Shown one piece after another: positions 6,073 through 61,046 of a stretch of DNA of 64,000 nt. Position numbers and translations under genes: made by a program. Positions within the stretch are counted from its first letter, which is position 1. Each line of letters opens with the position of its first letter. Location: positions 32,001-96,000 of the forward strand of contig CAWBKB010000007.1 of assembly GCA_963789265.1 (NCBI GenBank), in the 5' to 3' direction. The notes beneath the pieces were generated by a model. The model did not search any database, was not told where the DNA came from, and saw only the letters and a program-made list of their open reading frames with translations. Origin of the DNA: an uncultured delta proteobacterium (GTDB lineage Bacteria > Desulfobacterota > Desulfomonilia > Desulfomonilales > Desulfomonilaceae).

Positions 6073-7434
6073 ATGGACCAAGCCGCCGATCGCAAGGAGG
6101 ACCAGCCTGTGGCTTCTCAGCGGCCCGGGAGAAGATCCGAACCGGCAACGATTTCTGCCCCCACCACCGCTGGGCCGTATTTTGCAGGCCGGTCGCCGTA
6201 TGCTTTTCTCCTGGTACTAGCTCTCATTGGAACTTTTGCCACCGGCTTTCTCACATATCGGCACATCGTTCTCACGAGTCATTTTGGTGCCGCCGGCGAG
6301 TCGGCCCTATGCCCCGCACATGGGAACGTCAATTGTGATGCGATCCTGATGACGGACTATGCGGTCCTGTTCCGATATTTTTCGTCAGCGGCGCTGGGAT
6401 TGGCAGGATTTGTTCTTGTCCTTTGGCTCCTCGTCAATGCCCTTTTCAACGAGCGTATCAGAAAATTATCGTGGGCTTGCCTTGTAGTCTACTTTTTCGC
6501 TGCCATCGGTTTCAGTTGGTACTTCGCGTATATCATGGTGTTTGAAGTGGATTTCATTTGCACCTGGTGCATTGTGGTTCACGTTCTTAACGTGATTTCA
6601 CTCATTTTCGTGATAATCGTTTCCATGAGGAAGCGGAAAGAGTTTCTCCTGCCGGAAATCTCGACATTCGGGGAAAGGGCCTATTTCGTCGTGGGCGGCG
6701 TGTTGATATCCCTGTCGATCTTCCTGGGGTCGGGACTGGTGGAGAAGAGCCTGAGCTTCGACGACGCAAAAGCCAAATACGAGGAGATAGCCAACGATCC
6801 AGTGGTAATCTCCGCAATGCTGAATGCTTCGGAAAATTACCAGATCCCGGTGTCTGCCCGAGATCCTGTTTACGGATCTAGTGGAGCCCCTTACCCGATT
6901 ATCTTTTTCGGTGACTTCCAATGCCCCGTTTGTGCGGGGATGGAAAAGTTCGTTCGCAGACTAGTGGATATAAATCCTGGGGTGTTGAAACTGGTTTACA
7001 AAAACTATCCACTGTCCCTGGATTGCAATCCGATCCTACTCGGCAACCCGCATCCGATGGCCTGCACCGCGGCTCGTGCCGGGTACGCGGCTTTTCTTCT
7101 GGGCGGGCCAACTTCGTTTTGGCGGTATGCGAACCTTCTTTTTGAGAATCGGAGGCACTTGAACCGCGATCCATGGTCGGACTTTGCCCGACGGATCGGC
7201 CTCGAGCCTCGAAAGTTCCAGCCATTGATGGGCCCGGGAGGTCCGGCGGAGAAGAAAGTGAAGGAGGACATAGACCTCGGGATAAAGCTTAAGCTATCCG
7301 CTACACCTCAGATTTTCTTTGAAGGAAAAAAGATCCCGGAGAATTTGAAAGGGGAGTTCTTCATTGACACGCTGGAGCAGTTGGTCCGGGGCCACCATCC
7401 TGACAAAAAAGACTTCAAACTCAAAAGACGCTAA
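6073..7434 (+). CDS. VKOR-DsbA/thioredoxin fusion (disulfide bond formation)
   Basis: VKOR loop Cys pair (LCPAHGNVNC) and CTWC motif; thioredoxin-fold FGDFQCPVC and cis-Pro ATP. Confidence 0.92.
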   Translation: MDQAADRKEDQPVASQRPGRRSEPATISAPTTAGPYFAGRSPYAFLLVLALIGTFATGFLTYRHIVLTSHFGAAGESALCPAHGNVNCDAILMTDYAVLFRYFSSAALGLAGFVLVLWLLVNALFNERIRKLSWACLVVYFFAAIGFSWYFAYIMVFEVDFICTWCIVVHVLNVISLIFVIIVSMRKRKEFLLPEISTFGERAYFVVGGVLISLSIFLGSGLVEKSLSFDDAKAKYEEIANDPVVISAMLNASENYQIPVSARDPVYGSSGAPYPIIFFGDFQCPVCAGMEKFVRRLVDINPGVLKLVYKNYPLSLDCNPILLGNPHPMACTAARAGYAAFLLGGPTSFWRYANLLFENRRHLNRDPWSDFARRIGLEPRKFQPLMGPGGPAEKKVKEDIDLGIKLKLSATPQIFFEGKKIPENLKGEFFIDTLEQLVRGHHPDKKDFKLKRR

Positions 7435-7544
7435 CCGGGGCCTCGGCTCGTGCAGGAGCCCGGCATGCGCTTAATCAAGCGAATCCACAGTGTGGACAAT
7501 TTCAATGCGCGCCGATATTGGTGTTGCAAAAGGAGATCAGGAGA

Positions 7545-8216
7545 ATGTCCTCAAACAAAACCAGCTCTTTTAATCTGGGGAGCCTCAAGACTACAGCCAT
7601 GTTGTTGGCAATTTTGATTGTCGTCGGCCTGGCCCCGCGTTCTTCTTCAGCAAAGACAGATTTTCTCCCGCCTGAAATTAGGGACTTGGAGTTGGGAATA
7701 ACGTTGTCTCAGGTGATTGATAGAATCAAGGATTCCGGCACGCATTCGATGATCCCCATCGCCAAAGGGATGAGGAAGAAACTTATCTGGCCTCTGGCGA
7801 ACAGCTTGTATTACAAGCGAGTGGAGTTCGAATTTACCGAAAAGGATCACCTGTACTTGATGCGTTTCGTCCTCAATGATGAACTGAGGTGGAATTTGAC
7901 GTCACTGAAGAAACAATTCTTCGACAGGTACCACATTTCATGGGAGCACCCCGGCAGATTTCGGGCAAAGAACAATGACGTGATCGTTTATGTACCTGCT
8001 GAAGGGAAGTACAATTTTTTCGAGCTGAGAAATGTCGCCACGGGGGAGAATTCCTTCGAACTTTTCAATCAATTCATCAGCGCGCAGGACCGCCGACACG
8101 TTAAGGCCAAGGTTAGCGCCCCGAATCAGGTGGGAACGGCGACAACTGCCGCTCCTGTAAAAGGAAATGTTCCCAATTCGAAAGTGGAGAAGGAGCCCAA
8201 GCCACAAGGGAAATAA
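7545..8216 (+). CDS. Hypothetical exported protein
   Basis: AGGAGA RBS, signal-peptide-like N-terminus, long ORF. Confidence 0.7.
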   Translation: MSSNKTSSFNLGSLKTTAMLLAILIVVGLAPRSSSAKTDFLPPEIRDLELGITLSQVIDRIKDSGTHSMIPIAKGMRKKLIWPLANSLYYKRVEFEFTEKDHLYLMRFVLNDELRWNLTSLKKQFFDRYHISWEHPGRFRAKNNDVIVYVPAEGKYNFFELRNVATGENSFELFNQFISAQDRRHVKAKVSAPNQVGTATTAAPVKGNVPNSKVEKEPKPQGK

Positions 8217-8417: not shown

Positions 8418-10445
8418 TCATCTTCTCGGCTGCGTACCGGGTTCAGACTCGATAATACTCAGCCTCGCATTTAGCCTTCGCAGATTTTCCCAGGCATCTT
8501 TCAAATCGGGCTGAATCTCCAGCGCTTTATGGAAATGTTTTGCCGCTTCGTCAAACGCGCCGACATTCATGTAAATTGCGCCAATAGCATTGTGGGCCAG
8601 TGCCAAGCCAGGGTCGATTTCGATTGCTTTGCTGAGATGTTCCAGAGAAGCACCAGGCCGCCCTGCCGCCAACAAGGCGAAACCAAGATTTGCATGCGAT
8701 TTGGCCGACCGCGGATCTATTTGCACGGCCTTCTGGAAATCCTGTATCGCTTGCTCGATCTTTCCCAATTTCATGTACGCTGCGCCCCGATTCATGTACG
8801 GTTTGGATTGTGCCGGTTCAATAGCGATTGCCCGGCCGAACAACTTTAACGCCTCTTCGTAATTTCCGAGGCCGAGAAAGGCGTTTCCGAGATTGTTGTA
8901 GGGATCCGCGAAGTTGGGCTTAATTCTCATTGCTTTGCGAAATGACCGCATTCCTTCCTGCGTCTTGCCCATCCGCATCAAATTTTCACCAAGATTGTTG
9001 TAAGCATAGGCATTGTCAGGTTTAAGCTCTATAGATTTTGACAGGTGAACCATTGCATCCTGAAGCTGGCCCGCCAACATCAACTCAGTCCCTAGACCAA
9101 ACTGTACCGCATAGGAAACCGGATTCTTTTTGAAATTGTCTTGCCATAGAATCATGGGGCTCTCCCAGATTTTCACTTGTTGCCAGGTTTGGAGAACGAT
9201 AAACACGAAATAACACGATGCGGCAGCAATCGACATCTTTCCAATCGGCCTTTGTGCTAGACCGATCAAGTAAGCTACCGGAAGTGCAAGAAGAAAAGAA
9301 GCGCCAATCATGGAAATATACATGAAGTGATTCGCAACAAATGAGTGTTGCTGGTAACCGAAGGAAACGATTCCAATTGCGGGGGCTAGCGGAACAAGAA
9401 GATTTACCAAACCCCATATTGCGTATTTGTTCAAATGACCGCGAAACTTGAAGAGCAATGCTGCACAACCGAACAAAGCTATCAAAGGGATCCACCACCA
9501 GAAGTTGGATGGATCCACATGCCACCGCGGATAAATAAAAGTCATGCCGATCGGCAGCAAAGTTTCCCAAATATAAAACCAAACGGCAGAAGCTGCTATA
9601 AGCACTCGATGCAACAAAACGAAGCCGGCAAGGGATGCCCCTTCTGACTTGATGGACAGGACAGAGAAACCCAATGATATCAAAAAGAATGGAAGCACGG
9701 CAATCAACTTTGCCAACCAGAGCCTGCCATCGACCTCTTCACGGATATGTCGTTCTCCGACCGGCGACTCCATCGGTGCAAAAGAAGAGCACTCTCCAAC
9801 TTGGCGCGGGCTGCGTGTAGGAAATACTCGCAGGTAATCGCTGAGCAAGAGAACCACCGGCAAGACGCACACCGTTGGTTTGGTAAGAAGCCCTGCTGTG
9901 AAAGCGACAAGCGAAATTTCGTAGTGGAGCCAGCGACTCTCCCTCCTAAATCTGATGTATGAGATATAAGCGACCAGATAAAACGTTAACGACATCACGG
10001 TCTTCCGCTCGGCAAACCACAGAACCGACGAAACCTGAATGGGATGAATCAAGAAAAATAATACGGTCATGAGAGTGAGCACGAAATCAATTTCCAGACT
10101 ATCGAGTAAAAAGTAGATCAATATGCCGTTCAAGCAATGAATAATCAAATTCATGAATAGCGTGAAGCGAGGCGCCGATACATCCGAACCGATAAGCCAT
10201 TTGTCCGCCATAAGGCTTATCGACCCAAGCGGCGCATAATAGCCGGGGACAACCTTGCCGGCAAAGTCTAATAATAGAAGGCGTGAAGTTTCAAAAAAGT
10301 TCTTACTGTCCAACACTTTGGAATAGCTGAGCGCATCCAGACCGCTAAAGGAGTTCCCCAGCTTGGGAATGTAGATTAGACAGGTCAATGCCATCGCAAG
10401 TGCGAGCAGCATTAGTTGAGTTCGCTTCGGGATTTTCATCAACAT
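8418..10445 (-). CDS. TMTC-like membrane glycosyltransferase (GT-C) with C-terminal TPRs
   Basis: HPIQVSSVLWFAERK, LLTKPTVCVLP and NHFMY motifs; many TM helices; multiple TPRs. Confidence 0.85.
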   Translation of the reverse strand: MLMKIPKRTQLMLLALAMALTCLIYIPKLGNSFSGLDALSYSKVLDSKNFFETSRLLLLDFAGKVVPGYYAPLGSISLMADKWLIGSDVSAPRFTLFMNLIIHCLNGILIYFLLDSLEIDFVLTLMTVLFFLIHPIQVSSVLWFAERKTVMSLTFYLVAYISYIRFRRESRWLHYEISLVAFTAGLLTKPTVCVLPVVLLLSDYLRVFPTRSPRQVGECSSFAPMESPVGERHIREEVDGRLWLAKLIAVLPFFLISLGFSVLSIKSEGASLAGFVLLHRVLIAASAVWFYIWETLLPIGMTFIYPRWHVDPSNFWWWIPLIALFGCAALLFKFRGHLNKYAIWGLVNLLVPLAPAIGIVSFGYQQHSFVANHFMYISMIGASFLLALPVAYLIGLAQRPIGKMSIAAASCYFVFIVLQTWQQVKIWESPMILWQDNFKKNPVSYAVQFGLGTELMLAGQLQDAMVHLSKSIELKPDNAYAYNNLGENLMRMGKTQEGMRSFRKAMRIKPNFADPYNNLGNAFLGLGNYEEALKLFGRAIAIEPAQSKPYMNRGAAYMKLGKIEQAIQDFQKAVQIDPRSAKSHANLGFALLAAGRPGASLEHLSKAIEIDPGLALAHNAIGAIYMNVGAFDEAAKHFHKALEIQPDLKDAWENLRRLNARLSIIESEPGTQPRR

Positions 10446-10477
10446 TCTCCTGGGAACAAGCCGATCCTTACATATAT

Positions 10478-12622
10478 TCAGTAGCCGCGATATTCGTTTT
10501 CGAGCGCGGCTTGGATCTTGGCCGCTTGCTGTCTCAACCTGCCGTAAGTCTGCGCATTATGTCCGGAATGACATCTTATATCATCGCCTTCCAGAAGGCC
10601 TGCCACTAACATCATGCTCCTGACTACGGTCGTCGCGCCTGCCGGAACCATGTAATCCATTTCCGTTAGATGGCTGAGCTCAGAAGTCAGAAATGACCTT
10701 GCTTCCCAACTGAGGCAAGGAGATTTACCATTGAGAGCGAGTGTAATGAGGCTGTAGAGGCTGGGATCGGGATGGCGTCGCACATAGTTTTGCAATCGGA
10801 TCAACAATTCAGGAGACACGGTTCCGGAAAAGAATTGTGACATCACCGCCTCACTTACCAATCGTTTGTCATCCGACCGATACTGTAACCCTTTCAGACT
10901 CAGGGATCGGAACATCGGACCGAATCTTTCAGAATTCGATCTTGTAAGTAGCAGGAATTCTGCGTCCTTGTAAATGCAGGCCCATTGCCTTGTCTCCATG
11001 AGCCGCGTGGCCAGGTCAAAATCGGCGGCATTGGTTGCGAGCAAAGCGTACGAGACCTGATGACTGTCAAGAATCTCGAGTGTCCCAGGTATGTCCTGGG
11101 GCCTGGAATGCATGATTGAGAAGTAAGAAGCAATAACCCGGTCGGAATAGAAGCTCTGGTCCCTCGCGTCCATAAAGACCTTCATTTCAGGATCGTTGAA
11201 CAACAAGAACGCAGCCGCGGTCCAGCTACTCAAGATCCTTCCTCGGATGCCGTTATCCTTCATGAACCGAGCCACTCCCATGTCGTAGGCATCGAAGCTC
11301 ATTAACTGGCTTACCACAGGTCTGTCGGGACGCATGGGATTGGAAGGCATGTAAGGAACAACTGTCTTGGCCAAAAATTGATCCCCCAGAAAAAACAAAC
11401 ATCCAGTCACCAACCCGGCCGCGATGAACTGATATGTATGTGCTCTGTCTGAGCCGCCCTTGTCCCCTGGCATCTTTGCCAGAGCGTCCAGATGCACCTG
11501 TATAAGTACTGCAACCGAGGGCACGAGGGCCGGGGCGGCAAAGAGAATCATCCGGCGGAACCTGAAGGCCATGATCAGCAACGTCAAAGGAACGAGGAAT
11601 TCCATCAAAGTTCCGGAGAGCAGCTTGCCTGCGAGTCGCCTGACCAGAGTTTCACGGGCTCCTCGGAATGTTAACACGGCCGCCGCCAGAACCGCGCTGA
11701 ACGCTAACAGAAAGAGGAAGGGCTTGACGTCCAGAGGTTGGAGAAAGCCGTGAAGCCAGAGTTGATTCCAATTCAGCAATGGCATCCAGTCGACCGATTG
11801 GCTGGTCATCCTGCTCGCGGACAACTGGTGAAAAGGCATCATGATATTGGCCGGGCCGTAAGGATTAACAAATGCCATGATGGGAACGGCCAGAAGAAAT
11901 GTAGTTACCCAGCCACTCACATCACCCTTATCGGTGTATTCGACTAAAGAGGCCGGCATACCGGAGTGATTCTCGGACGACAGCGCCAGGTTCTTATTCG
12001 GCCCAGAGATCCATCTAAGAGTTAAGTAAGCCGGCAATTTGCTCTTGAACAAAAGCTCCACCAGGAGGCGAAGTCCCAGGAGCGCAAAACCCAGCATGAA
12101 TGACCCGTGGGAATTACACCAGAGCGCCAGGATAACCAGACAACCAATCTGCCTCCACCTGCCCCATGTAATCGGCGCACACAAAGTCGCTACAATGGCC
12201 AGAAAGTAGAGAAGTCCAAAATCCTCCGCGCGAATTTCGAGAAAAGGAGCCAAGGCCAGGGTGCCAAGAACTAATGCCGCCAGAGACGATTCCAAACCAG
12301 CGCCCAGGCTGCGGCATCGGAAGTAGAGGATTACCAGGCAAAGTGTCAACAGCAGCGCTTTAAGCAGTACCGGTCCAAGGTCGTGCAGCCCCAAATACGA
12401 CAGGTAGTAAATCAGGTGCGCTAACCAGGACTGATCCACCCAGATCTTGCCGGGCATGGTGAAAGACCACTGATCGGGTTTTGCCAGGAGACCCGCCATG
12501 GTGGCTCGCCCGGAACATAGCGCCACGAAAAGGTCCTCGTTAAGAAAACGCATTCCGAGAGCGATGAGGAACGAAAGCCCCAGACACGAAATAAGTGAGG
12601 TTCGAATCCAGAATCGCACCAA
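10478..12622 (-). CDS. Polytopic membrane protein, GT-C-like
   Basis: Pattern DLFVALCSGR..DQWSFT..WVDQSWL..LWCNSHGSF..VFMDAR; many TM helices plus a periplasmic C-terminal domain. Confidence 0.7.
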   Translation of the reverse strand: MVRFWIRTSLISCLGLSFLIALGMRFLNEDLFVALCSGRATMAGLLAKPDQWSFTMPGKIWVDQSWLAHLIYYLSYLGLHDLGPVLLKALLLTLCLVILYFRCRSLGAGLESSLAALVLGTLALAPFLEIRAEDFGLLYFLAIVATLCAPITWGRWRQIGCLVILALWCNSHGSFMLGFALLGLRLLVELLFKSKLPAYLTLRWISGPNKNLALSSENHSGMPASLVEYTDKGDVSGWVTTFLLAVPIMAFVNPYGPANIMMPFHQLSASRMTSQSVDWMPLLNWNQLWLHGFLQPLDVKPFLFLLAFSAVLAAAVLTFRGARETLVRRLAGKLLSGTLMEFLVPLTLLIMAFRFRRMILFAAPALVPSVAVLIQVHLDALAKMPGDKGGSDRAHTYQFIAAGLVTGCLFFLGDQFLAKTVVPYMPSNPMRPDRPVVSQLMSFDAYDMGVARFMKDNGIRGRILSSWTAAAFLLFNDPEMKVFMDARDQSFYSDRVIASYFSIMHSRPQDIPGTLEILDSHQVSYALLATNAADFDLATRLMETRQWACIYKDAEFLLLTRSNSERFGPMFRSLSLKGLQYRSDDKRLVSEAVMSQFFSGTVSPELLIRLQNYVRRHPDPSLYSLITLALNGKSPCLSWEARSFLTSELSHLTEMDYMVPAGATTVVRSMMLVAGLLEGDDIRCHSGHNAQTYGRLRQQAAKIQAALENEYRGY

Positions 12623-12714
12623 TTAATTGCCCTGTGGATTTGCCAGGCGTGTGTTTTTTCACACCGCCGGGAATGAACCTGAGTTGGCTCTTTCACGCGC
12701 TCCTGACGGATTGG

Positions 12715-12893
12715 TTCACCGCGGAGATCGCTGAGAACGCAGAGAATTTGGCTACGGGTCTATCCACTGAAGCTCCTCGAAGCTCTGTTTGCAATAGTGA
12801 GGGCAATTTCAGCCTGACCGTGCGCATACAGCGCTTGCATGACCGTGAATGAGCTATCCTTTTTCTCTGCGATCTCGGCGCTCTCTGCGGTGA
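12715..12893. repeat. TCACCGCAGAG-type inverted repeat pair
   Basis: TTCACCGCGGAGATCGCTGAGAACGCAGAGAA and TTCTCTGCGATCTCGGCGCTCTCTGCGGTGA; partial copy near 18695. Confidence 0.7.
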
Positions 12894-12936
12894 GTCTTGA
12901 TCGCTCGTTAAAAGCAGACAGGCATCTAACGGTCAC

Positions 12937-14571
12937 TCACTTTTTAGCGTGATTCATCTTCTCGCGTATGGCTTCTTGCAGTTCCTCCGGCCGACAATCC
13001 GCGCCGTACAATCGGGCTTCGCGGCAATGTTCCAAGGCTTTCTTGTAGGAGGCTTGAAAAAAGCGAATTTTGGCCAATGCCAGGTGCGGCTCACCGAACC
13101 GAGGGTTTTTTTGAATGCATTTTTTAAAATACTCTACGGCAGCATCCAGCCGGCCTTGCTTCATCATAATGATGCCTAAATTGTTGTACGCTTGGTAAAG
13201 GTTTTCATCCACAGCCACAGCTTTTCGGTATTCGGTAGCAGCCTCCGAAATTCGTCCCTTGTCGTCAAGATAATGAGCGTAATTGTAATGGGCTGTGACA
13301 CTAGCCGGATACTGGGCTATGACATTTCTCCACAGAGTTTCTCCGTTATCCCAAACCGGCATTAAGCGGATGGTAATTATACTCAGCACAAAAACAGAGA
13401 TCGCTGTGAAGACGGCCCTAGCACAAACGGCGTTTTGCGTCTTCCATCGGCTGATGAGATTATCGGCCACCAGCACTGCCGACAACGAGGCGCCGACAAT
13501 GGCCAAATACTGGTAGTGGTCGGCCACCCAGAGTTCATTCATGCCCACAAAAGGAACGATACCCGATGACGGAATCAAATTCAAAACGTAAAAGCTGACC
13601 CCCCATAGAATGCCCCAAAGCGGAACCAGACGATGCATGGCCAACAAAAGAATCCCCACTATGACCAAGACCCCTGCTGGAATCCACAAAAGAATGGGTG
13701 CGGGGTGAATCCCCGGGGGCGGATAAATGAGACTTAGGCCGGAGGGGAAAATAAATTTCCCCAATAAAAAGCATGTCTTAAACGGGAAGAGCAGAAGTCT
13801 GTCCCACAGCGGCGGCGCATTCACGACCGCACCTTCTGTGTTGGTTCCCAGGACTGTCCACAAAATGCCGATGACAAGGACTGGCGTTGCCCTCCACAGT
13901 GAGCGAATCGTCGGTTTCCTGTCGTACAAGAACAGGTCCGTCATCATCATGCACGGGCCGAAAACGACTGCTGACGGTTTAGAAAGGAGGCTCAGACAAT
14001 ACGTGACTACCGCTCCCCAATATAAGCCCTTTCTTTCCGTCTGTCGGTATCGGGAATAACAGAGAAGCCCTATCAAGAAAAAAAAGCCCATGAGCAGATT
14101 CTTGCGCTCCGGGATCCATGCCACCGTGCTCACCTGCAACGGGTGGATCGCGAAAAGCGCGGCCACAGTGAACGAAACCCACAGGCTGAACCCAAAGCTC
14201 CTTATGAGCCACAGTACCAGGATTGAATTAATAATATGGAACGCTAGACTAGTGCTCTTAAGGACCGTATCACTCCTTCCAATAGCTTTCCCCAGCCAGA
14301 GATCCGCCATAATGCTCACAGCCGGCAGAGGAGCATAATAGCCTACTTGTCTGGAACGGGCCTCGCCCCATGTGAGGTCCCAGGTGAATATTCTCTTTAA
14401 GGTTTGTAAACTGGGGTTCTTTACCGCCTGTACCCATAAGACATCGTCATAGTTGGCAATTTCCTGGTATGGCGCCCTGTGATAGACAGCTAGATTAAGG
14501 ATCACGAGCGATAAGATCGCAATTAGGGTCAGTTTTTGAGGGGAAATGGAATTTCGTTGCTTGTAGTCCAT
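12937..14571 (-). CDS. TMTC-like GT-C + TPR protein
   Basis: NYDD in the first loop, HPLQVSTVAWIPERK, LLSKPSAV, ADHYQYL, TPRs. Confidence 0.87.
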   Translation of the reverse strand: MDYKQRNSISPQKLTLIAILSLVILNLAVYHRAPYQEIANYDDVLWVQAVKNPSLQTLKRIFTWDLTWGEARSRQVGYYAPLPAVSIMADLWLGKAIGRSDTVLKSTSLAFHIINSILVLWLIRSFGFSLWVSFTVAALFAIHPLQVSTVAWIPERKNLLMGFFFLIGLLCYSRYRQTERKGLYWGAVVTYCLSLLSKPSAVVFGPCMMMTDLFLYDRKPTIRSLWRATPVLVIGILWTVLGTNTEGAVVNAPPLWDRLLLFPFKTCFLLGKFIFPSGLSLIYPPPGIHPAPILLWIPAGVLVIVGILLLAMHRLVPLWGILWGVSFYVLNLIPSSGIVPFVGMNELWVADHYQYLAIVGASLSAVLVADNLISRWKTQNAVCARAVFTAISVFVLSIITIRLMPVWDNGETLWRNVIAQYPASVTAHYNYAHYLDDKGRISEAATEYRKAVAVDENLYQAYNNLGIIMMKQGRLDAAVEYFKKCIQKNPRFGEPHLALAKIRFFQASYKKALEHCREARLYGADCRPEELQEAIREKMNHAKK

Positions 14572-14673
14572 GAAAATGCCCAGCCGTCCGGATTGGTTCG
14601 AAAGAGATCTATTCGAACTGGAGCCATTTGCTCGTTTCCACGAAAAGTAGAGGGCTTACGAGCGGCGAAAGAT

Positions 14674-14865
14674 TGTCATTGCGAGCGCCTCGTCCCGCGA
14701 GACGAAGCAATCTCTTCCTCTGAACGCCGCTTAGATTGCCGGTGGAACGGGCATCTTGCCGGTCGTCCATAATAGACAGGCAGTCCCGCGAGGCATGGGA
14801 CTGTCCCACTATTCACTCCTCGCAATGACATGGACAGAAGGTCCCCACCGTAAGTAAATAGGCAC
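14674..14865. repeat. Nested repeat: TGTCATTGCGAG doublet whose right arm is interrupted by other REP hairpins
   Basis: Left arm 14674-14714; right arm AGATTGC...CTCCTCGCAATGACA is split by GGTGGAACGGGCATCTTGCCGGTC and GGCAGTCCCGCG..GGGACTGTCCCACT. Confidence 0.75.
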
Positions 14866-14872
14866 ATCTTCG

Positions 14873-17191
14873 CTACTTTCCGGGAATTCTTTTCAAGGTG
14901 TCAGCAGAACACGGGATTCCCAATCTGCTATTTTTGGAGCAGAATTTCTCAGCCTCTTCGTAGAGCTTCAAATCGATCAGAGCGTTCGCCAGATTTTCCA
15001 CAACGCCGTGGAAAACCGGCTGAATCTTATATGCTGTCCGAAACTGGGCCAGAGCCCGGCTGTAGTTACCCTTTGCCGCGTAGGCAGCACCCAGGATATT
15101 ATATGCGTTGGCGTCGCCCACCAGGCTCACAGCAGTTTCTAGAAGCGGGATTGCAGCATCGGGTAGGCCCCTTGATAGGAGAATGGCCCCTTTCTGGATG
15201 TATGGTTCGGGCCAGAAAGGTTCGAGTTGGATAGCTCGTGTATATTCAGCCAAGGCATCATCTTTTTTGCCCTGGTAATAGCGAAGCAGACCCAGTTGCC
15301 CGTGAAGCTTCCCCGAGCCCGGGTTGCTCATTATCGATTTTTTCAGGAACCGGATGGCTTGATCCTGTTTTCCCTCTTTCCACAGGATTTCCGAAAACAT
15401 GATTCGGGCGTCATCGTACGCCGGATTGATCTGAAACGCCTTTTCATACATTTTCTTTGCGTTTGGCTCATCACCGATCAACCGATACACTTCCCCCAGG
15501 TTAAAATATGGGATATCCATGTTCGGCGACAGTTCCGAGGCTTTTCGGAACAGACCGAGGGCTCTGTCGTATTCTCCCCTCGAAATAAGAAGATTTCCGA
15601 GATTGTTATTGGCAGCGAATGAATTCGGGTTATCCTTCAATGTTGCCTCCCACAGGGAAAGCGGATCTCGCCATAGCCAGGTCTGGCGCACCGATGCAAC
15701 ACCCAGCGCCGCGACCCACAGGTAGAGAGCAACCATAAGCAATTTTCCGGAAGTGGAATCAGCACCCAGCTTGTAGAACAGTTGCGAGAGGAGACGCGCA
15801 ATAATCAGTGCCACTCCAACCATCGATAAGTACAAGAAATGGTCTGCCACAAAGGAATGGTTCATATAACCAAATGGAATCATGCCCGAGACCAGAACAA
15901 GATTAAACACGAAGAAAAGCATGCCCCATAAGATCCATTTGTCGATGCGTTTTCGAAAATAGATGACCAGGACCGCCACAGCGATGGCTGCTGCCAAGAG
16001 AAAGGAAAACCAGGGGATGTGCGCCGCCACATCCCATTTGGGATAGATAGGAAAAAGTTTTAGAGGAAGCAAGATCTTGCTGATGTAGAACCAGAAAGCA
16101 CCTGCCGAGATAAGGGGTCGATAGGGCCACGCGGGGAGAATTCCGCTATAAGTTTTTTCGGTGCCGATGACGTAAGCGCCCCAGGCTAATGCCATCACAA
16201 AGAGTGCAACTAAGAGACCGATCACTCTTCTCCGCTTGAATTGATCGTACCCAAAGACAACAAGCAACGCAGCCAACACCACCGGTAGAGTTACAGCGGA
16301 AGGTTTGGACAGCAGGCCTGCAGCAAAACAGACGATCACGCCCAAGAGATATCGTGACGGTTTATCCGTAGAGGCAGCGGGTCCTCCAGGGGCATCAAAG
16401 TCCCCCTTTTCTAAAGGGGGATTTAGGGGGATTTTCAAGGGGTTATCCCAAAATCCCCCCTGTCCCCCCTTTACGAAAGGGGGGGACCCAGTATTCCGCC
16501 GGGTTAAGTTGGTCTGTGCGACGTTTGACACAGGATCGTCCGCGGTGCATGTTTGAAACTCCGCCGGCAGGGACGCCGACTCTACTGGGCTAATGGTAGG
16601 ACCGGCCTCCGTGCCGGTCGACTTACAATTGGCCTGCGTGCCGGTCGAATCAGAGAGATATTTCAGAAACAGCATGACGGACGCCAGGTAGAATAGAGTC
16701 GCCAGGAGGTTCTTCCGCTCCGCGACCCACGCGACCGTCCCCACCTGAACCGGATGAAGCGCAAAGATCAGAGCCCCTATGAATGCAGGTCTCCTGCCTG
16801 TCCCGACCATGAGCAATAGTAGGAGTACCAGCACTGAGTTAGCTATGTGGTAGACGACATTCATAAGCTTGGAGACCCCTGGACTCGGCTGGTCCGGCGA
16901 GGTCGAGAAGAGCTGGTCCGCCATGAGGCTCAGACTTTGAAGCGGGTTGTAGTAAACTTCTCCCGTGTACTGAAGCTTGAAGTCCGTGACAATTCTCCAA
17001 GCTCGCTGCCACCCGGGTTTCCAAACCGCAGCAACGAATTTTTCGTCGTCCCAACCTGAGAAGTGCTGGTTGATCACCGGCACGTACGTGGCGGCAGTAA
17101 TGATAATAAGGAGTATTATAGCGACCGTGCGCTCAGACTTCGCAGATCGGTCATGCGAGAGATTTGTCGAGGTTGAAAAGCTGGATGAGAT
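14873..17191 (-). CDS. TMTC-like GT-C + TPR protein with an in-frame repeat-derived insertion; probable ATC start at 17191
   Basis: GWDD, HPVQVGTVAWVAERK, LLSKPSAVTLP, ADHFLYL, TPRs; the first TM helix lies upstream of the GTG at 17083. Confidence 0.85.
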   Translation of the reverse strand: MSSSFSTSTNLSHDRSAKSERTVAIILLIIITAATYVPVINQHFSGWDDEKFVAAVWKPGWQRAWRIVTDFKLQYTGEVYYNPLQSLSLMADQLFSTSPDQPSPGVSKLMNVVYHIANSVLVLLLLLMVGTGRRPAFIGALIFALHPVQVGTVAWVAERKNLLATLFYLASVMLFLKYLSDSTGTQANCKSTGTEAGPTISPVESASLPAEFQTCTADDPVSNVAQTNLTRRNTGSPPFVKGGQGGFWDNPLKIPLNPPLEKGDFDAPGGPAASTDKPSRYLLGVIVCFAAGLLSKPSAVTLPVVLAALLVVFGYDQFKRRRVIGLLVALFVMALAWGAYVIGTEKTYSGILPAWPYRPLISAGAFWFYISKILLPLKLFPIYPKWDVAAHIPWFSFLLAAAIAVAVLVIYFRKRIDKWILWGMLFFVFNLVLVSGMIPFGYMNHSFVADHFLYLSMVGVALIIARLLSQLFYKLGADSTSGKLLMVALYLWVAALGVASVRQTWLWRDPLSLWEATLKDNPNSFAANNNLGNLLISRGEYDRALGLFRKASELSPNMDIPYFNLGEVYRLIGDEPNAKKMYEKAFQINPAYDDARIMFSEILWKEGKQDQAIRFLKKSIMSNPGSGKLHGQLGLLRYYQGKKDDALAEYTRAIQLEPFWPEPYIQKGAILLSRGLPDAAIPLLETAVSLVGDANAYNILGAAYAAKGNYSRALAQFRTAYKIQPVFHGVVENLANALIDLKLYEEAEKFCSKNSRLGIPCSADTLKRIPGK

Positions 17192-17287
17192 CGTGGGCCT
17201 CCTTTGAATGATATTTCTGGGCTAATTCTTAGGTTCCACGGATCGGTGGGACGGGCATCCTGCCCGTCTCAGGATGACAGGCAGGAT

Positions 17288-17498
17288 GAAACTGTCTCAA
17301 AACCTCCTGAACAGGACAACATCGTAACACGAAATCCCCTCACCCTGTCCCTCTCCCGAAGGGCGAGGGGACTCCAATAGCCTCTTTGGTACAGCTCCCT
17401 CTCCCTCTGGGAGAGGGTTGGGGTGAGGGCAACAACTATACGAATGAGACCTAATCGTGGCACGATGTTGGGCATCAAGATAGTTTTGAGACAGTTTC
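17288..17498. mobile_element. 211-bp MITE with perfect 16-bp TIRs and GGAT target-site duplication, inserted into a REP
   Basis: GGAT-GAAACTGTCTCAAAAC ... GTTTTGAGACAGTTTC-GGAT; internal CCCTCACCC..CCCTCTCCC..GGGAGAGGG doublet. Confidence 0.85.
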
Positions 17499-17672
17499 GG
17501 ATGCCCGTCTCACTGAATTTTCACGTCTCCATATCCCAACTGCTCATTCCCGGTTTCCGCCATTGCCTATGGTAGTTCTTGTATAACTCTTTACCGCAAA
17601 AACTAGAAGAGCGAGAGAGAGAACCTTGTTTCAGCCCTTCCTCTCGCACTTTCCATGTACCTCGCATAACAT

Positions 17673-17705
17673 AAAAAACTTCGGGGCGTTTGATAACGCC
17701 CCGAA
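17673..17705 (-). terminator. Rho-independent terminator of the pilin gene
   Basis: TTCGGGGCGTT-loop-AACGCCCCGAA followed by a T-run on the minus strand. Confidence 0.85.
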
Positions 17706-17737
17706 CGCGAAAGAAACAGATTCACGCAGTTTGTGCG

Positions 17738-18331
17738 CTACATCGTACCAGTGATCGAGCCGCAGCTAACGGTCCCAGCGGGCGCGGAGGGTGAGCAATT
17801 TGAGGTGGTCACCATACTCGAAGTGTAACACGTCGCAGCGCGACCGCCGTAAGCGTTCCATGCTGCATTGCAGTCTCCCGTGATAGCGGGCATGTCGACG
17901 CCGCCTACTATACCGATCCGATAGAGGTAACGGTCGGTAGTGGTGCTTGTGGGATGGGATCCATTTTGAGCGCAGGCTATGAACGCTTGTGTGGTGGTAT
18001 CCGCGGTGACCCGCACATCACACTTGGCGTTAGTACCGCCCCATCCGTAATAGGGACCAACCATCCAAGGTAGCATGGTGGCCGCGAGGGCGCCGTTCGA
18101 TCCAATGAGGTTGCCGAAGTCCCCGCAGTTAAGGTCTACCAACTCATTGCCGAACCGCTCAATGGCCGCGCCAAGCTTTGAGATATCGGCGCTTGCTGCG
18201 CGGTCGCACGCGGTCCTCTTGTACGAGACATAGTACGGGATGGCGATTGCCAGGATGATACCTATAATCGCCACCACGACCATGAGCTCGATCAGTGTGA
18301 AACCCTTGACATTCTTGATCTTGCTCAGCAT
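17738..18331 (-). CDS. pilA: Type IVa major pilin-like protein
   Basis: Class III signal KG|FTLIELMVVVAIIGIILAIAIP with E5; AGGAGG RBS; own promoter and terminator; 8 Cys. Confidence 0.88.
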   Translation of the reverse strand: MLSKIKNVKGFTLIELMVVVAIIGIILAIAIPYYVSYKRTACDRAASADISKLGAAIERFGNELVDLNCGDFGNLIGSNGALAATMLPWMVGPYYGWGGTNAKCDVRVTADTTTQAFIACAQNGSHPTSTTTDRYLYRIGIVGGVDMPAITGDCNAAWNAYGGRAATCYTSSMVTTSNCSPSAPAGTVSCGSITGTM

Positions 18332-18461
18332 AAGTTCCTCCTTTTCTCTCTGATTTACCTAGTCTTTCTCCGAATTTCCGGCCTACTAATCAAGCGCAAT
18401 CCGGAGTGTCCCGGATTACGCAGTACTTATTGGCGGCCAAAGGACTGCTGGTAAAGGGTTC

Positions 18462-18477
18462 AGCAACAATTGTGCCA
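18462..18477 (-). promoter_or_regulatory. sigma54 (-24/-12) promoter of the pilin gene
   Basis: TGGCAC-AATTG-TTGCT on the minus strand, an exact consensus match. Confidence 0.88.
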
Positions 18478-18767
18478 CATACCGAACATGGTTTTTAAGT
18501 AGTGATTTCAGTCTACTCAGGACGACGCGCGTCCGGCAGATTTGGTCATCCTAAACAAAAAAAGTCACCTAAGGTTGGTATCCTGCGTAACGGACAGATA
18601 TCACGGATGTTATTTGTGTCAACTAAGTGGGCAATGCCGACGATCTTTGTCTCCGAGTGATGGCGCACTAACTCTTTACCCCGAATCAAGATTGACCGCA
18701 GAGTACGCAGAGAACGAAGATTGCTGGTTCAGCGTCATGTGAATAACCGGCGCGTATAGTGAAGTCC

Positions 18768-19182
18768 GTAGGGGCAGACCTCGTGTCTGCCCTCTTCCGG
18801 GCACCCACGAGGGGCGCCCCTACAGCGAATGCCCGCGTACCCGGGCATGACGACATGTAAGGGCGGGTTTGAAACCCGCCCCTACCAGAAACACGGTGTC
18901 ACTTCTTTGAAAGCGAATCGGTATTAATTGTCACAGACCAGAATTCCGGTCCGGTTCCCAATCCCGCGTCTCGCCGGGCCTGGGGACCGATATCTCGCAG
19001 ACTCTGCCCGTAAGCTGCGCTTATTTCAATATTATAGTCGAGGCAGCTCGCGTAGGATGCGGTGAACCCCGCGAATGCGGGGAAACCGCATCGGTCGCGG
19101 AAAACCTCGACTAGGGGGCCTTCTACCGCAGAGACGCGACAGATGCGGTTCACTCCCTGCAAGAGGGTTCACCACATCCTAC
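18768..19182. repeat. Cluster of GTAG- and CGTC-type REP hairpins with a MITE-like right end at 18899-18923
   Basis: GTAGGGGCAGACCTCGTGTCTGCCC, GGGCACCCACGAGGGGCGCCCCTAC, GGGCGGGTTTGAAACCCGCCCCTAC, GTAGGATGCGGTGAAC..CACCACATCCTAC. Confidence 0.8.
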
Positions 19183-19320
19183 ACAACTGTATAATTCACG
19201 GCGTTAAAAGCAGGCAGACTCGAAAGTCCGCCCTACAGGTCCGGTTGCAATGTCAATAGGCCCCGATGTGCTATACTAACAAAGTACGACCATGATCCGG
19301 CGGAGCGCTAATCAGCAGCC

Positions 19321-21354
19321 ATGTGTTTACCCCGAGCGATTCTCCCTGTCATCCTTGTCGGTGTATTCTTTGCCCTATCTTTTGCCGTTCATCGACCCGC
19401 ACTCACGGCTCCCATGCAATACGATTCGGCTGCCGCTATTAAAGCGAATGAATACCTCTTCAACTTTGGCATGCTGGAAGCCATCAAGATCTTTCGGCAG
19501 CGCCCTATCCCGATGATCACATTCTACCTCAACTATCTCGCGGACGGACTGAACCCTTATTATTTCCGCGTGGTCAACGCGCTCTTCATGGCCTGCGCCG
19601 CCGGTGCAGCAGTGTTGGCACTGATGTACCTGCTGGAGATCTCCGGTATTAACGTTAGTGGAAACCGAAGCCGGATTAGAACGGTAAGCATCTGCCTGGG
19701 CTTGGCTTTCGTGCTCCACCCCGTAACTACATACTTGGTCGTCTATGTCTGGCAACGCATGGCGTTACTGTCTGCGTTGTTCTTTTTTGTTGCTTTGGCT
19801 GCGTACCTCGCGACCAGAATCGGCAGAATGCGAAATACCGCGCTGGGGTATGCCATCTGCGTAGCTATGTTTTTCCTGGCTATGGCAAGCAAAGAAAGCG
19901 CGATTACGCTTCCCGCGATCCTGTTATTGGTAGAATTCACTTTCTTTGACGAAAGCCTCCGGGATCTGCTCAAACGCTCGGCGATTTTTGGTTGCGTGGC
20001 CTTGATAGCGATCCTGGCCTTGTCGTTTCTCGAGCGACCCCACGGCCAAATCGCAAGCCAAGCGGGTCTTCTTGCCACGATCGGCCGCTACTACAAAGAA
20101 GGAGGGGTGACGCTGGCGCAGGTGGCGATGGGCCAATGTGTCGTGTTTTTCGAGTATCTCAAAATGGCGTTCCTGCCCATGCCTTCAAATGTTCACCTGA
20201 TAAATCCGCAGATTGTCCCCACCTCGATAATCGATCCGCCGGCCACGGCAGCGGCAGTGGCCGGTGTGGCTGTGATCGTTGTTTCGAGCATCTACCTCCT
20301 CAAGCGGCGGCCGTTGATAGGATTCGGAACGCTGTTCTTTATCATCAACCTGTTGCCCGAAGCCTTTTTGGTTCCTCAATACCTCTTCTTCGGATATCGG
20401 ATATTTGTATCAATGTTCGGCTTATTATTGATCGTGGCTGACGGCATTTTGTGCCTGCTCGACCTCGTCAAAGGCGAAAAAGGGAAGCTACTAGTGAAGG
20501 TGGGCCTTTCCTGCGCGTTCGCGGTCACGATACTCCTGTCGGCTCATACCACTGTTACCAAAGATGCGTTATGGATGAGTCAAATTGCTTTCTGGAACGA
20601 TGTCCGAAACAGGTTACCGAACGACCGACGAGTGGAGAAACACGTCAAGATTCAAACGTTGGACAATCTCGGAAATTATCTTAGGACTTCCGGCCGGACC
20701 GACCGCGCGCTGGCGCTCCATCAGGAGGCGCTGCGCACAGACAAAGGCTTCGGATACACCTATCTCGCGCTGGCCTGGGATTACGCTCAGTCCGGCCGGC
20801 TGGATGATGCAGCCGGCGCTTACAAAGAACTTCTACGCATGGACAAGAATAATGCGGCTGCCCACGCCGGGCTTGCCGATGTGTTGCTGAAACAAAACAG
20901 GCTCGATAAGGCCCTCCAATACTTCAAGGAGGCTTTAAAACTTAAGCCTCGCAACCCGGATTACATCTATGGCATTGCGACAGTTTGGCTTGAGAAAAAG
21001 GACACCGTTGCCGCATTGCCTTATTTGCAGCGCACGATCGTCTCGAATCCCGGACACGTGGAGGCGCAATACGATATCGGAAAGATCCTGATGGATGCCG
21101 GCATGATTTCGGAGGCGATTGATCATTTCAACGCGGCGTTGGCTGCAAATCCGAAATTCTGGATGGCCCACAACAATCTTGGTGTAATCTTAGCGAGGAT
21201 GGGCAGGTTGCCTGAAGCAATAGACCATTTTTACAAGGCCCTCAAGATCAACCCCGGCGACGAACCGACACGCAAGAACCTCGAAACCGCTTTAGCATCG
21301 CTGAGAGCAACTGGACGAACCGAAGGGGGCATGAGGAAGGGTTCCGGGCAGTAG
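19321..21354 (+). CDS. TMTC-like GT-C + TPR protein, divergent from the pilin gene
   Basis: QYDS, HPVTTYLVVYVWQRM, ASKESAITLP, GYRIF, TPRs. Confidence 0.85.
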   Translation: MCLPRAILPVILVGVFFALSFAVHRPALTAPMQYDSAAAIKANEYLFNFGMLEAIKIFRQRPIPMITFYLNYLADGLNPYYFRVVNALFMACAAGAAVLALMYLLEISGINVSGNRSRIRTVSICLGLAFVLHPVTTYLVVYVWQRMALLSALFFFVALAAYLATRIGRMRNTALGYAICVAMFFLAMASKESAITLPAILLLVEFTFFDESLRDLLKRSAIFGCVALIAILALSFLERPHGQIASQAGLLATIGRYYKEGGVTLAQVAMGQCVVFFEYLKMAFLPMPSNVHLINPQIVPTSIIDPPATAAAVAGVAVIVVSSIYLLKRRPLIGFGTLFFIINLLPEAFLVPQYLFFGYRIFVSMFGLLLIVADGILCLLDLVKGEKGKLLVKVGLSCAFAVTILLSAHTTVTKDALWMSQIAFWNDVRNRLPNDRRVEKHVKIQTLDNLGNYLRTSGRTDRALALHQEALRTDKGFGYTYLALAWDYAQSGRLDDAAGAYKELLRMDKNNAAAHAGLADVLLKQNRLDKALQYFKEALKLKPRNPDYIYGIATVWLEKKDTVAALPYLQRTIVSNPGHVEAQYDIGKILMDAGMISEAIDHFNAALAANPKFWMAHNNLGVILARMGRLPEAIDHFYKALKINPGDEPTRKNLETALASLRATGRTEGGMRKGSGQ

Positions 21355-21704: not shown

Positions 21705-22685
21705 TCATTCAGACAGCAACTCCTTGAGTTCCTTGTTGAACTCAGGCACGACCTTGAATAAGTCCCCAACTATGCCGTAATCGGCCTTGGTAAAAATGGG
21801 GGCTTCGGTGTCTTTGTTAATAGCAACGATAACCTTTGACGATCCCATGCCGGCCAAATGCTGGATAGAACCGGAAATGCCGCACGCAATGTAAAGATTT
21901 GGAGTCACAGTCTTTCCGGTTTGGCCCACCTGGTCCGAATGCGGCCTCCATCCTGCGTCCACTGAAGCTCTGGAAGCCCCGACAGTGGCTCTCGAACCAA
22001 AAATGGCAGCCATCTCCTCTAGAAGAGAGTAGTCCGGACCTCCCATTCCTCGGCCGCCTGACACTATGATTTCCGCCTCGGTAAGATCTACCTTACCGCT
22101 GGTATCGAGGTTGAGATCCTTGGTTGCGTAGGTCGGACGGCTTGTGTCCGGACTGAATGAGACCTTTTCGATCGTGCCTTCTCTGGGATTTTCCGTAAGT
22201 TCAAGCACGTTCGGTCTTGCTGAAGCAATCTGCGGCGATTTACTTGCGGTCCAATGCGCGTAGCACTTTCCCGCGTACATCGGCCGCTTACCGACGAGTG
22301 TTGACCCTTCGAGTTCAAATAATACGCAATCTGCAATCGCGGCTACACCGAGCTTGGCAGCAGTCCGCGGTGCCAGGTCTTTACCCTGCATGGAATGGCT
22401 GATCAAAACTATGTCAGGCTTTTTCTCCCCGATGAGATGAGCCAGGGCCTGGGCATAGTACTCTGAATTATAGGTGTCCAATTGTGGAGACTCGACAACA
22501 TAAACAGTTTCCACACCGTACTTTGCCAGGTTGGGAACAAATTGCTCAGCTTGCGAACCCATGAGGACCGCAGATAGAGCCCCTCCAAGTTTGTCGGCCA
22601 GCCTGCGTCCCTCACTGGCCAGTTCGAATGCGGTCTTCTTTATCTTACCTGCTTTAATCTCTCCGTATATCATGATGTTGGACAT
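21705..22685 (-). CDS. etfA: Electron transfer flavoprotein alpha subunit
   Basis: IIVSGGRG, QVGQTGK, YIACGISGSIQHLAGM. Confidence 0.96.
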   Translation of the reverse strand: MSNIMIYGEIKAGKIKKTAFELASEGRRLADKLGGALSAVLMGSQAEQFVPNLAKYGVETVYVVESPQLDTYNSEYYAQALAHLIGEKKPDIVLISHSMQGKDLAPRTAAKLGVAAIADCVLFELEGSTLVGKRPMYAGKCYAHWTASKSPQIASARPNVLELTENPREGTIEKVSFSPDTSRPTYATKDLNLDTSGKVDLTEAEIIVSGGRGMGGPDYSLLEEMAAIFGSRATVGASRASVDAGWRPHSDQVGQTGKTVTPNLYIACGISGSIQHLAGMGSSKVIVAINKDTEAPIFTKADYGIVGDLFKVVPEFNKELKELLSE

Positions 22686-22743
22686 CTGTCATTTCCCCTC
22701 TACTTACGAAAGTCATATCAAAGGCTTATCCAAGCCGGATCCG

Positions 22744-23523
22744 TCAGATAACCTTGGCCTCGTTACGGAGCGCCTGGACAACCAGCTTGGCGGCATCAGC
22801 AGGCTCCGTGCCTTCCAATTTCTTGCCGGCCTGCCGCTCCGGAGGCATGGTGTAATTCTTAGCCTGCAGCCTGGCTTCCACGTTGAGACCAAGATCCGCC
22901 GAAGTCTTTTTGTCAATAGGCTTCTTTTTTGCCTTCATGATTCCGGGCAGCGATGCGTACCGGGGCTCGTTAAGGCCTTTCTGGGATGTGAGCACGCAGG
23001 GCAATGGGACTTCTACTGTTTCTTTTCCGCCCTCCACGTCTCTTTCCACTGTGGCGGTCTTTTTGTCTTCCGAGACTTCGACCTTGGTCACCAAAGTGAC
23101 CTGTGGGAGCTGCAGAAATTCAGCAACCATTGCACCGGCCTCTCCGGAATCGTCGTCGATGGCGCGTTGGCCGCAGAAAATGACGTCATACTCGATCTGT
23201 TTCGCTGCGGCTGCCAACGCTTCGGCCATTACATAAGGATCGGCCTCGTTTAGGCGCTCGTCATTGATATGGAATGCCCGATCCGCGCCCATCGCCAGTG
23301 CAGTGCGAATCGCTTCAGTTGCACGATCCGGTCCGACGGTGAGTATCACCACTTCCCCTGCCTTGAATTTTTCTTTGAGCCTAAGGGCCTCTTCTACACT
23401 AAACTCGTCGTAAGGATTGATGATGTACTTTATTCCATCGGTCACAATGCCGGACCCGTCCGGTTTTACCTTAATCTGTGTTTCCGTGTCAGGGACTTGT
23501 TTTAGACACACCAGTGACTTCAC
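22744..23523 (-). CDS. etfB: Electron transfer flavoprotein beta subunit
   Basis: VCLKQVPDT, INPYDEFSVEEAL, NEPRYASLPGIMKAKKK. Confidence 0.96.
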   Translation of the reverse strand: MKSLVCLKQVPDTETQIKVKPDGSGIVTDGIKYIINPYDEFSVEEALRLKEKFKAGEVVILTVGPDRATEAIRTALAMGADRAFHINDERLNEADPYVMAEALAAAAKQIEYDVIFCGQRAIDDDSGEAGAMVAEFLQLPQVTLVTKVEVSEDKKTATVERDVEGGKETVEVPLPCVLTSQKGLNEPRYASLPGIMKAKKKPIDKKTSADLGLNVEARLQAKNYTMPPERQAGKKLEGTEPADAAKLVVQALRNEAKVI

Positions 23524-41533: not shown

Positions 41534-41596
41534 CCTCGTCCCGGAGAGGCCTTGCCGCCAAGACTCCGTCTGGTCCCCCGGGGGGAGTGCGTAACT

Positions 41597-44500: not shown

Positions 44501-44970
44501 CGGATGGGGCTCGTGGTTGTATCGAACGGTCGATCCAGATGCATCTTGATTCCGGAGTCGTGATCGAGCTCCCCCACGATTATGCGTACTTGAGCATGGC
44601 ACATTTGGCCACAGGCGACGTGGCGAAAGCCCGTAATTTTATCGATACCGCCTTGGATTGGGCTCGGAAGTGCAACCAAAAACATTGGGAAGGCCTGGCG
44701 AAGATATTTTTTGGCAAGATAATGTCCCAGAGCGAAGCTCTCCAAGCAGCCAGGGCTGAGGCGTCAATCTTGGAAGGGATTGAAATTCTGTCGCAATTAG
44801 GCATGAAGCCATATTGTGCCCAAGGCTATTTCTATCTGGGGGAGCTTCGAGTTACTACCAGCAAATCACAACTCGGTACGAAAAACCTGAAAAAAGCCGA
44901 AAGAATGTTCAAAGAAATGGGAATGGAATACTGGCTGGATAAGACGCAGAAAGTTCTTGGCCGCATTTAG
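41597..44970 (+). CDS. Degenerate class III cyclase + AAA/STAND ATPase + TPR protein, copy 1 (frameshifts near 43700 and 43925)
   Basis: VTILVADI, LFGAP, FVGREQE, GDAGVGKS, EDLHWID, GNPLFIEE, FAFKHAL; joins ORFs 41552, 43806 and 43900. Confidence 0.88.
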
Positions 44971-44991
44971 CGGCATGTTCGCTGGGGGATC

Positions 44992-60957: not shown

Positions 60958-61046
60958 TACCAATTCGCGTTCAAAATTGTGAGAAAATCCCCTCTAACCC
61001 CCCTTTAGTAAAGGAGGGAAGTGGGGATTATGAATGCGAATTGGTA
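60958..61046. mobile_element. 89-bp MITE-like element carrying a CCCCCTTT..AAAGG hairpin
   Basis: TACCAATTCGCGTTCA ... TGAATGCGAATTGGTA, a 15/16 inverted match with TA at both ends. Confidence 0.7.

Follow-up and report, generated by a model that had tools for sequence, protein, structure and literature searches.

A type IV pilin gene among five predicted GT-C-type membrane enzymes: a candidate pilin O-glycosylation island in the Desulfomonilaceae

We analyzed a stretch of 64,000 nucleotides (the window) of contig CAWBKB010000007.1 from an uncultured delta proteobacterium of the family Desulfomonilaceae (assembly GCA_963789265.1), in which a type IV pilin gene (pilA) is accompanied by five genes for large membrane proteins. 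The block consists of six intact open reading frames (ORFs), whose positions agree with a preliminary description of the same DNA (Table 1). T1, G2, T3, T4, and pilA are encoded on the minus strand, and T6 is encoded on the plus strand. The pilin had been described as flanked by the other genes; all five are present, but four of them are located downstream of pilA, and only T6 diverges upstream of it. The block sits between a VKOR-DsbA gene pair on the left and two ORFs on the right that we take, from their sequence features, to be etfA and etfB. A tblastn search with pilB, pilT, and pilC, which are located on contig C3, gave no match within the window, in agreement with the earlier statement that pilus assembly genes are lacking here. 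A foreign origin of the island is not supported by its composition (GC content 0.475-0.54, compared with approximately 0.52 genome-wide).

Table 1. Coordinates and main characteristics of the pilA block and its borders.
Feature	Position	Strand	Characteristics
T1	8418-10445	-	GT-C/TPR paralogue, 675 aa; D-hydrophobic first loop (DA), YAPL, ERKT, TKP, NHFMY
G2	10478-12622	-	membrane protein, 714 aa; predicted STT3/PglB/DPY19-like GT-C fold; NED first loop
T3	12937-14571	-	GT-C/TPR paralogue, 544 aa; DD, YAPL, ERKN, SKP, DHYQY
T4	14873-17083 as called; likely 14873-17191	-	GT-C/TPR paralogue with 95-aa loop insertion
Intrinsic-terminator-like hairpin directly after pilA	17680-17705	-	11 pairs and T-run
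Pilin (pilA)	17738-18331	-	type IVa major pilin, 197 aa, 8 Cys
Sigma54 -24/-12 site upstream of pilA	18463-18477	-	TGGCAC-N5-TTGC
T6	19321-21354	+	divergent GT-C/TPR paralogue, 677 aa; DS, RPI, QRMA, SKESAIT, YR
VKOR-DsbA fusion and 232-aa hypothetical gene	6073-8216	+	frequent left border among relatives
etfA and etfB (presumed)	21705-23523	-	frequent right border among relatives

The pilin scored above the cut-offs of PF07963 and TIGR02532, and it has a class III signal peptide (G-F-x-x-x-E) with a hydrophobic helix. It is the sole PilA-like protein among the six class III signal-peptide proteins found by a pattern scan of the genome. The sigma54 site that had been assigned to pilA was verified; among 48 related pilin ORFs, 32 have the same pattern upstream, compared with none of 76 GT-C genes and 0.4% of random 400-nt windows. 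The terminator proposed earlier does exist as a hairpin; however, the scan found 22 terminator-like sites when 18.5 were expected, and therefore only position and strength favor its function as the pilA terminator. Three hydroxyl residues (S115, T160, and S162 in mature numbering) and six Cys residues are retained in 32-37 of 37 pilin orthologues. The VKOR-DsbA gene and the hypothetical gene often border the island in relatives, and six of the eight Cys residues of the pilin are nearly invariant; the VKOR-DsbA fusion is possibly a dedicated disulfide catalyst for this Cys-rich pilin.

T1, T3, T4, and T6 each have 10-11 hydrophobic segments in a simple scan and C-terminal TPRs, and BLAST shows them to be paralogues in their membrane domains (E 1e-33 to 1e-4). 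The first-loop motifs noted previously (NYDD, GWDD, GLDA, and QYDS) and the shared HP..V.W..ERK-like and SK..A.LP motifs were confirmed, with departures in T6 (QRM and SKE). The first loop contains DD in T3 and T4 and only the first Asp in T1 and T6. A KE like that of the TMTCs and the Arg of loop 5 are retained in T6. All 44 aligned membrane domains share the Asp of the first loop, the HP pair, and the Lys of loop 3 without variation.

Profile searches did not place these membrane domains in a described family: Pfam and NCBIfam had no family for those of T1, T3, T4, and T6, nor for G2, although 12 of the 44 aligned domains matched PMT_2 at E<=0.05. In the PDB, the membrane domains had no significant match by sequence or profile search, and all 60 matches listed for the full-length profile were TPRs. 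An AlphaFold2 model of T3 was obtained with high confidence (predicted local distance difference test [pLDDT] score, 94.5). A structure search with VIA matched this model to Pmt1-Pmt2 (Z 20.5, root-mean-square deviation [rmsd] 4.5, 343 aligned residues), followed by AglB (Z 19.6), ArnT (18.9), Pmt4 (18.7), and PglB (18.0). Foldseek with the same model gave essentially TPR proteins, with no GT-C protein among the matches listed. TMTC and TMEM260 entries were not among the VIA matches listed for the models, which does not exclude them. T3 and G2 were the two proteins folded; they are thus predicted to have the GT-C membrane fold, and T1, T4, and T6 are placed in it by their homology to T3.

The fold of the fifth membrane protein, G2, is predicted to be of another GT-C type. 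Its model (pLDDT 91) matched STT3B over residues 1-564, including the periplasmic domain (Z 20.4, rmsd 4.4, 463 aligned residues), and also PglB (Z 17.8) and DPY19 (Z 14.3). It is predicted to combine a GT-C fold with an alpha/beta domain on the periplasmic side and a tail of helices, and its neighbors in Atlas belong to Dpy19/PMT_2/STT3. The profile-profile comparison of the T3 and G2 families was not significant (probability 0.9%); therefore, we regard G2 as a separate family. WWDxG is the sequon-binding motif of the STT3/PglB N-oligosaccharyltransferases. WWD was found in 0/52 aligned G2 relatives, with SWTAA at the position judged equivalent. The missing WWD, the extra helical C-terminal domain, and an identity of 8-12% make an N-sequon oligosaccharyltransferase unlikely. 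N-glycosylation of the pilin by G2 was rejected for the same lack of WWD and because the single N-G-S sequon of the pilin mostly has Lys in place of Asn in its orthologues. The earlier count of five GT-C-type genes is therefore supported by predicted folds and homology, except that the fifth is modeled as STT3/DPY19-like, not TMTC-like.

The paralogues do differ from one another, as the preliminary description held. In a midpoint-rooted FastTree phylogeny of 97 ORFs of >=430 aa, from which shorter frameshifted pieces were excluded, T1, T3, T4, and T6 fall into four old clades that span many genera, each with its own fixed set of catalytic-loop motifs. An additional clade, with WHPL, ERKD, and DRY, occurs in other islands. 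In comparison with the relative genome G004, the ratio of nonsynonymous to synonymous substitution rates (dN/dS) was 0.11 for T4, 0.22 for T1 (37% identity), and 0.22 for the C-terminal part of T6; dS was saturated for T3 and G2. The T4 clade is the one most often found directly downstream of pilA, and T4 is likely the core enzyme. Modeling of T4 (residues 20-772) together with the head of the pilin gave no answer (score 0.00) and was counted neither for nor against.

The called start of T4, the GTG at 17083, needs correction: the codons for the first membrane helix precede it, so that the protein starts earlier. Upstream of this GTG (17083-17221, minus strand), 46 codons are open without ATG, GTG, or TTG, and AGGAGG is followed by ACG and ATC. 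A public contig that spans 16773-17234, and which may derive from the source sample, is identical there. Since it shows no difference, a non-canonical start is possible, and judged from the sequence, T4 probably starts at such a codon near 17191. The T4 loop also contains an insertion of 95 residues (16349-16633, minus strand) that is present in at most 3/16 orthologues. Within it lies a palindromic repeat (16396-16490) that recurs across the genome (83 places), a mobile repeat tolerated in frame.

The association of pilA with GT-C/TPR genes is conserved within the family. The pilin was found at E<=1e-15 in 41 of 70 family genomes, including the source genome, and we fetched flanks of up to 10 kb on each side of the best or likeliest pilin copies rather than of every copy. 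Counting GT-C ORF pieces of >=150 aa, a GT-C/TPR member lies within 10 kb of the pilin in 30/40 family genomes and within 2 kb in 26/40; in 18/40, it is directly downstream and co-oriented. When only the best pilin match of each genome is considered, a hand count gives 24/40. The chance expectation, computed in the source genome, is 1.3%. Four of the six members in that genome are at the pilA locus. The islands (33 loci), frequently bordered by etfAB and the VKOR pair, contain 1-5 full-length members whose order varies. Strong GT-C/TPR matches (E<=1e-50) were present in 43 of the 47 genomes in which pilB had a strong match and in none of the other 23; the latter include one genome whose match, at 1e-113, was sub-cut-off. 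G2 was found in none of the 22 genomes of the two pilus-less genera.

The islands of relatives differ further in gene content. Some include GT2 genes resembling lipid-sugar synthases (G004 and G071). Loci L011, L018, L023, L034, L039, L047, L053, L060, and L086 contain more multi-pass membrane proteins of 450-720 aa, mostly without a Pfam match and in one case matching PMT_2, together with methyltransferase, B12 radical SAM, acyltransferase, and sulfatase genes; these extra genes possibly represent more glycan-modifying families. In genome G006 (L055:7515-9254), a DUF4277 gene, presumably transposase-like, lies beside pilA, the VKOR gene is in two opposite-strand pieces, and no GT-C gene is left, an apparent loss of the island. 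In a sister family, loci L024-L028 have clustered GT-C/TPR genes without a pilin; at L026-L028, these genes lie beside GDP-fucose pathway, aminotransferase, and methyltransferase-GT2 genes.

The grouping of pilA with five predicted sugar-transferring membrane enzymes across the family suggests that these enzymes sugar-coat the pilus. Experiments on TfpW of Pseudomonas, which glycosylates its pilin at several Ser/Thr residues, have already established the core idea that the pilin is a substrate of a GT-C/TPR enzyme encoded beside pilA (10.1101/2020.04.19.049825). The preliminary description had held that bacterial TMTC-like proteins have no established substrate; this statement disregards TfpW, whose described architecture is the same. 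We consider it probable that the present block is an island for pilin O-glycosylation by several enzymes, which works like TfpW. Polyprenyl-phosphate sugars, for which the genes would lie elsewhere in the genome, would reach the periplasmic face. T4, and probably also T3, both of which have an intact DD, would transfer the first sugar to Ser/Thr residues of membrane-anchored PilA while the TPR domain would hold the pilin head. T1, T6, and the STT3-like G2, whose fixed catalytic-loop residues differ, would attach different sugars, modify other positions, or lengthen the glycan. As genes are gained and lost at one fixed place in the chromosome, strains would come to differ in their pilus coat, plausibly as a defense against pilus-binding phages. 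Pilin glycosylation itself, as well as the donor, the sites, the division of labor, and the shielding from phages, is an inference in this scheme.

Several results weigh against this interpretation. The link is missing in 10/40 family genomes, in four of which the pilin lies at the end of its contig or the contig is very short, and T4 orthologues sometimes remain beside the VKOR pair with pilA elsewhere (loci L014 and L020). The 23 pilB-less genomes are smaller and represent three genera, and pilin islands supplied most of the sequences in the profile; hence, the lack of strong GT-C/TPR members in these genomes represents few independent co-loss events. G2 occurs in only 6/33 loci with a pilin and GT-C gene, and T1 and T6 lack the second Asp. 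The Ser/Thr runs of the pilin, which had been put forward as evidence, exist, yet they are neither conserved nor enriched and are not diagnostic: Ser and Thr amount to 17.2% of the pilin, compared with 15-18.5% in the other five class III pilin-like proteins of the genome; the mean fraction is 0.162 in linked pilins (n=32) versus 0.182 in unlinked ones (n=33); and the TADTTT and PTSTTT positions are retained in just 2-12 of 37 orthologues. We rejected them as evidence. The conservation of the pilA linkage, predicted earlier, also fades beyond the family. The sister family shows it in only 2/16 genomes, with one further link at 10.5 kb, one locus not fetched, and several contigs ending beside the pilin; its GT-C/TPR members cluster instead with gmd/fcl, GT2, and aminotransferase genes. 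In a cross-taxon sample, a pilin-like gene was found at 11/68 loci (9/46 where >=11 kb was covered), which is well above chance but a minority, and 57/68 had none in the sequence covered (<=6 kb per side). Therefore, membership of the GT-C/TPR family alone does not imply a pilin substrate.

The sugar donor is a further difficulty, since neither a donor synthase nor a flippase is encoded in the island. Candidate synthases lie elsewhere: the genome has 25 GT2 matches, two of them beside its two other GT-C/TPR genes, far from pilA. GtrA and the C-terminal domain of DprE1 (PF04030) were not found in this 95.6%-complete genome; their lack disfavors D-arabinofuranose (D-Araf) as the sugar. A decaprenyl-phosphate phosphoribosyltransferase (DPPR synthase) scored above the NCBIfam cut-off at 51587-52474 (minus strand), and from its sequence, it may offer a route to a polyprenyl-phosphate-ribose donor. 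According to the accessible part of PMC11127046, such a synthase can provide undecaprenyl-phosphate-ribofuranose to other GT-C enzymes.

In an alternative view, the acceptors are other components of the envelope, namely minor pilins or adhesins, periplasmic proteins, or side chains of lipopolysaccharide or capsule; pilA would then share a surface-variation hotspot with the enzymes or be just one of many substrates. The size of the family, which comprises 36,772 clusters at E<=0.001, its mostly pilin-free contexts outside the Desulfomonilaceae (57/68 loci and 14/16 sister-family genomes), up to 12 member matches per genome, the two further members of the source genome beside GT2 genes, and the frequent lack of linkage between G2 and pilin all fit this alternative. 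However, it leaves aside the co-oriented member directly downstream of the pilin in 18/40 genomes and the lack of strong members in the 23 genomes without pilB; moreover, the best structural matches are protein-acceptor transferases, and TfpW is a precedent for the pilin as the acceptor. We regard it as unlikely.

Pilin glycosylation could also be catalyzed solely by the DD-intact T4 and T3, with T1 and T6 as non-catalytic membrane TPR scaffolds or pilin chaperones, so that the system would be essentially one TfpW with helpers. The replacement of DD by DA and DS across whole clades is consistent with this proposal, as is the finding that mutation of the DDX motif of TfpW abolished glycosylation (cited in 10.1101/2020.04.19.049825). 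On the other hand, the first Asp and the loop-3 Lys, together with KE and the loop-5 Arg in T6, are retained across the clades, and according to the accessible text of PMC7801869, all homologous transferases retain at least the first Asp. Helper roles for T1 and T6 therefore seem improbable to us. Still less credible is the transfer of a non-sugar lipid-linked group by some of the enzymes, or a role in pilus assembly or stability without covalent change. This would agree with an island that has no donor pathway and with the resemblance of the TPR domains to PilW/Tgl, but the TPR matches are generic and below the cut-off, and all top structural matches of the membrane domains have the GT-C fold and are nearly all glycosyltransferases.

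A broader version of the glycosylation-island interpretation can be offered tentatively, although we find it rather doubtful. The Desulfomonilaceae would have a combinatorial pilus glycan coat, built by an exchangeable cassette in which at least five old GT-C/TPR clades (four of them here), all distinguished by a fixed catalytic-loop signature, and an undescribed WWD-less transferase with an STT3 fold act in series on one pilin. Under this view, TfpW, the bacterial family of 36,000 clusters, and the eukaryotic TMTCs would belong to a single lineage of protein O-glycosyltransferases guided by TPRs, in which the T6 clade is nearest to TMTC in motif content. If pilin glycosylation by the island is true, a very large and little-studied family of bacterial enzymes, related to the human TMTCs, would gain a concrete substrate and a set of natural specificity variants, and pilin glycosylation, a known phage defense of Pseudomonas, would extend to anaerobic Desulfobacterota.

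Some other genes in the window were noted. Two membrane proteins at 61034-62827 (plus strand) and 63088-63942 (minus strand) resemble other GT-C types by eye and have no Pfam or NCBIfam match. Two similar tandem sets of adenylate-cyclase-like, ATPase, and TPR genes (labeled by eye), each divided into separate ORFs, occupy 41552-48320 (plus strand). A GSCFA-family gene is located at 54870-55757 (plus strand); this family is frequently found near polysaccharide loci.

Our literature search, whose coverage excluded most subscription papers, found no paper on this locus or on a link between TfpW and TMTC. A related arrangement is known from cable bacteria (Ca. Electrothrix), Desulfobacterota in which pilA is likewise clustered with sugar-modifying enzymes and TPR proteins; in the accessible part of that study, the TPR proteins were not identified as GT-C enzymes and glycosylation was not assayed (PMC10580974). 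G2 resembles STT3, PglB, AglB, and DPY19 in its predicted fold and differs from them in the absence of WWD, the extra helical C-terminal domain, and the low identity mentioned above.

The preliminary description had proposed a TMTC-based system. T1, T3, T4, and T6 share with TMTC1-4 (GT105) the order of a GT-C domain followed by luminal or periplasmic TPRs, although the sidedness is deduced here from topology. Full-length prokaryotic TMTC homologues, one of them deltaproteobacterial, are already noted in the accessible part of PMC7801869, and the relatives of T6 are labeled "protein O-mannosyl-transferase" by JGI. With motifs M1-M7 as defined in Table 4 of PMC7801869 and GT-C motifs as given in the accessible text of PMC6801728, M1 (DD), M2 in part (YxPL), and the Lys of M4 can be recognized, and T6 has KE..IT and the M7 Arg. 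Among the four proteins, M1 is found in 2/4, M2 is partial, and the M3 Asp, M4 KE, M5 DW, and M7 Arg are found in 0/4, 1/4, 0/4, and 1/4, respectively. Unlike in TMTC1-4, SHKS is absent, RxD is replaced by RKN, RKT, or RMA, and the M7 Arg is replaced by His in T1, T3, and T4. DUF1736 (PF08409) gave no match at E<=0.1 in the genome and 0/44 among the members. From the partial motif match and the absence of DUF1736, we conclude that the four proteins are TMTC-like but are not TMTC members. A mannose donor and a cadherin-type substrate, as for TMTC1-4, are unsupported here.

The closest known counterpart is TfpW of the P. aeruginosa/paraeruginosa group IV strains Pa5196 and PA7, to which the island is likened by described features rather than by sequence comparison. 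TfpW has 646 residues, 11 transmembrane (TM) segments, a DDX motif in periplasmic loop 1, a proline-rich motif in loop 4, and a periplasmic C-terminal TPR domain, and it is encoded directly downstream of pilA (10.1101/2020.04.19.049825). ArnT is its closest template, and its donor genes are unlinked. Its genomic context is confirmed by the accessible parts of PMC11841053 and PMC12369383, and the modification blocks several phages, as stated in the accessible part of 10.1101/150227. T3 and T4 likewise appear to have approximately 11 TM segments, a DD first loop, and a C-terminal TPR domain, with an incomplete DD in T1 and T6, and T4 is directly downstream of pilA as well. The proline-rich motif (YX6PFX7P in TfpW) is similar but not identical: Y-x6-P-x7-P in T1 and T4, the same with L for Y in T3, and Y-x6-P-x9-P in T6. 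The pilin of the present block has eight Cys residues, unlike that of the TfpW system, and no tfpX-like gene accompanies it. Whereas TfpW is a single enzyme that adds D-Araf, this block contains four paralogues with differing catalytic-loop motifs and a predicted STT3-like fifth enzyme, and it is this multi-enzyme, strain-variable array that is new beyond TfpW.

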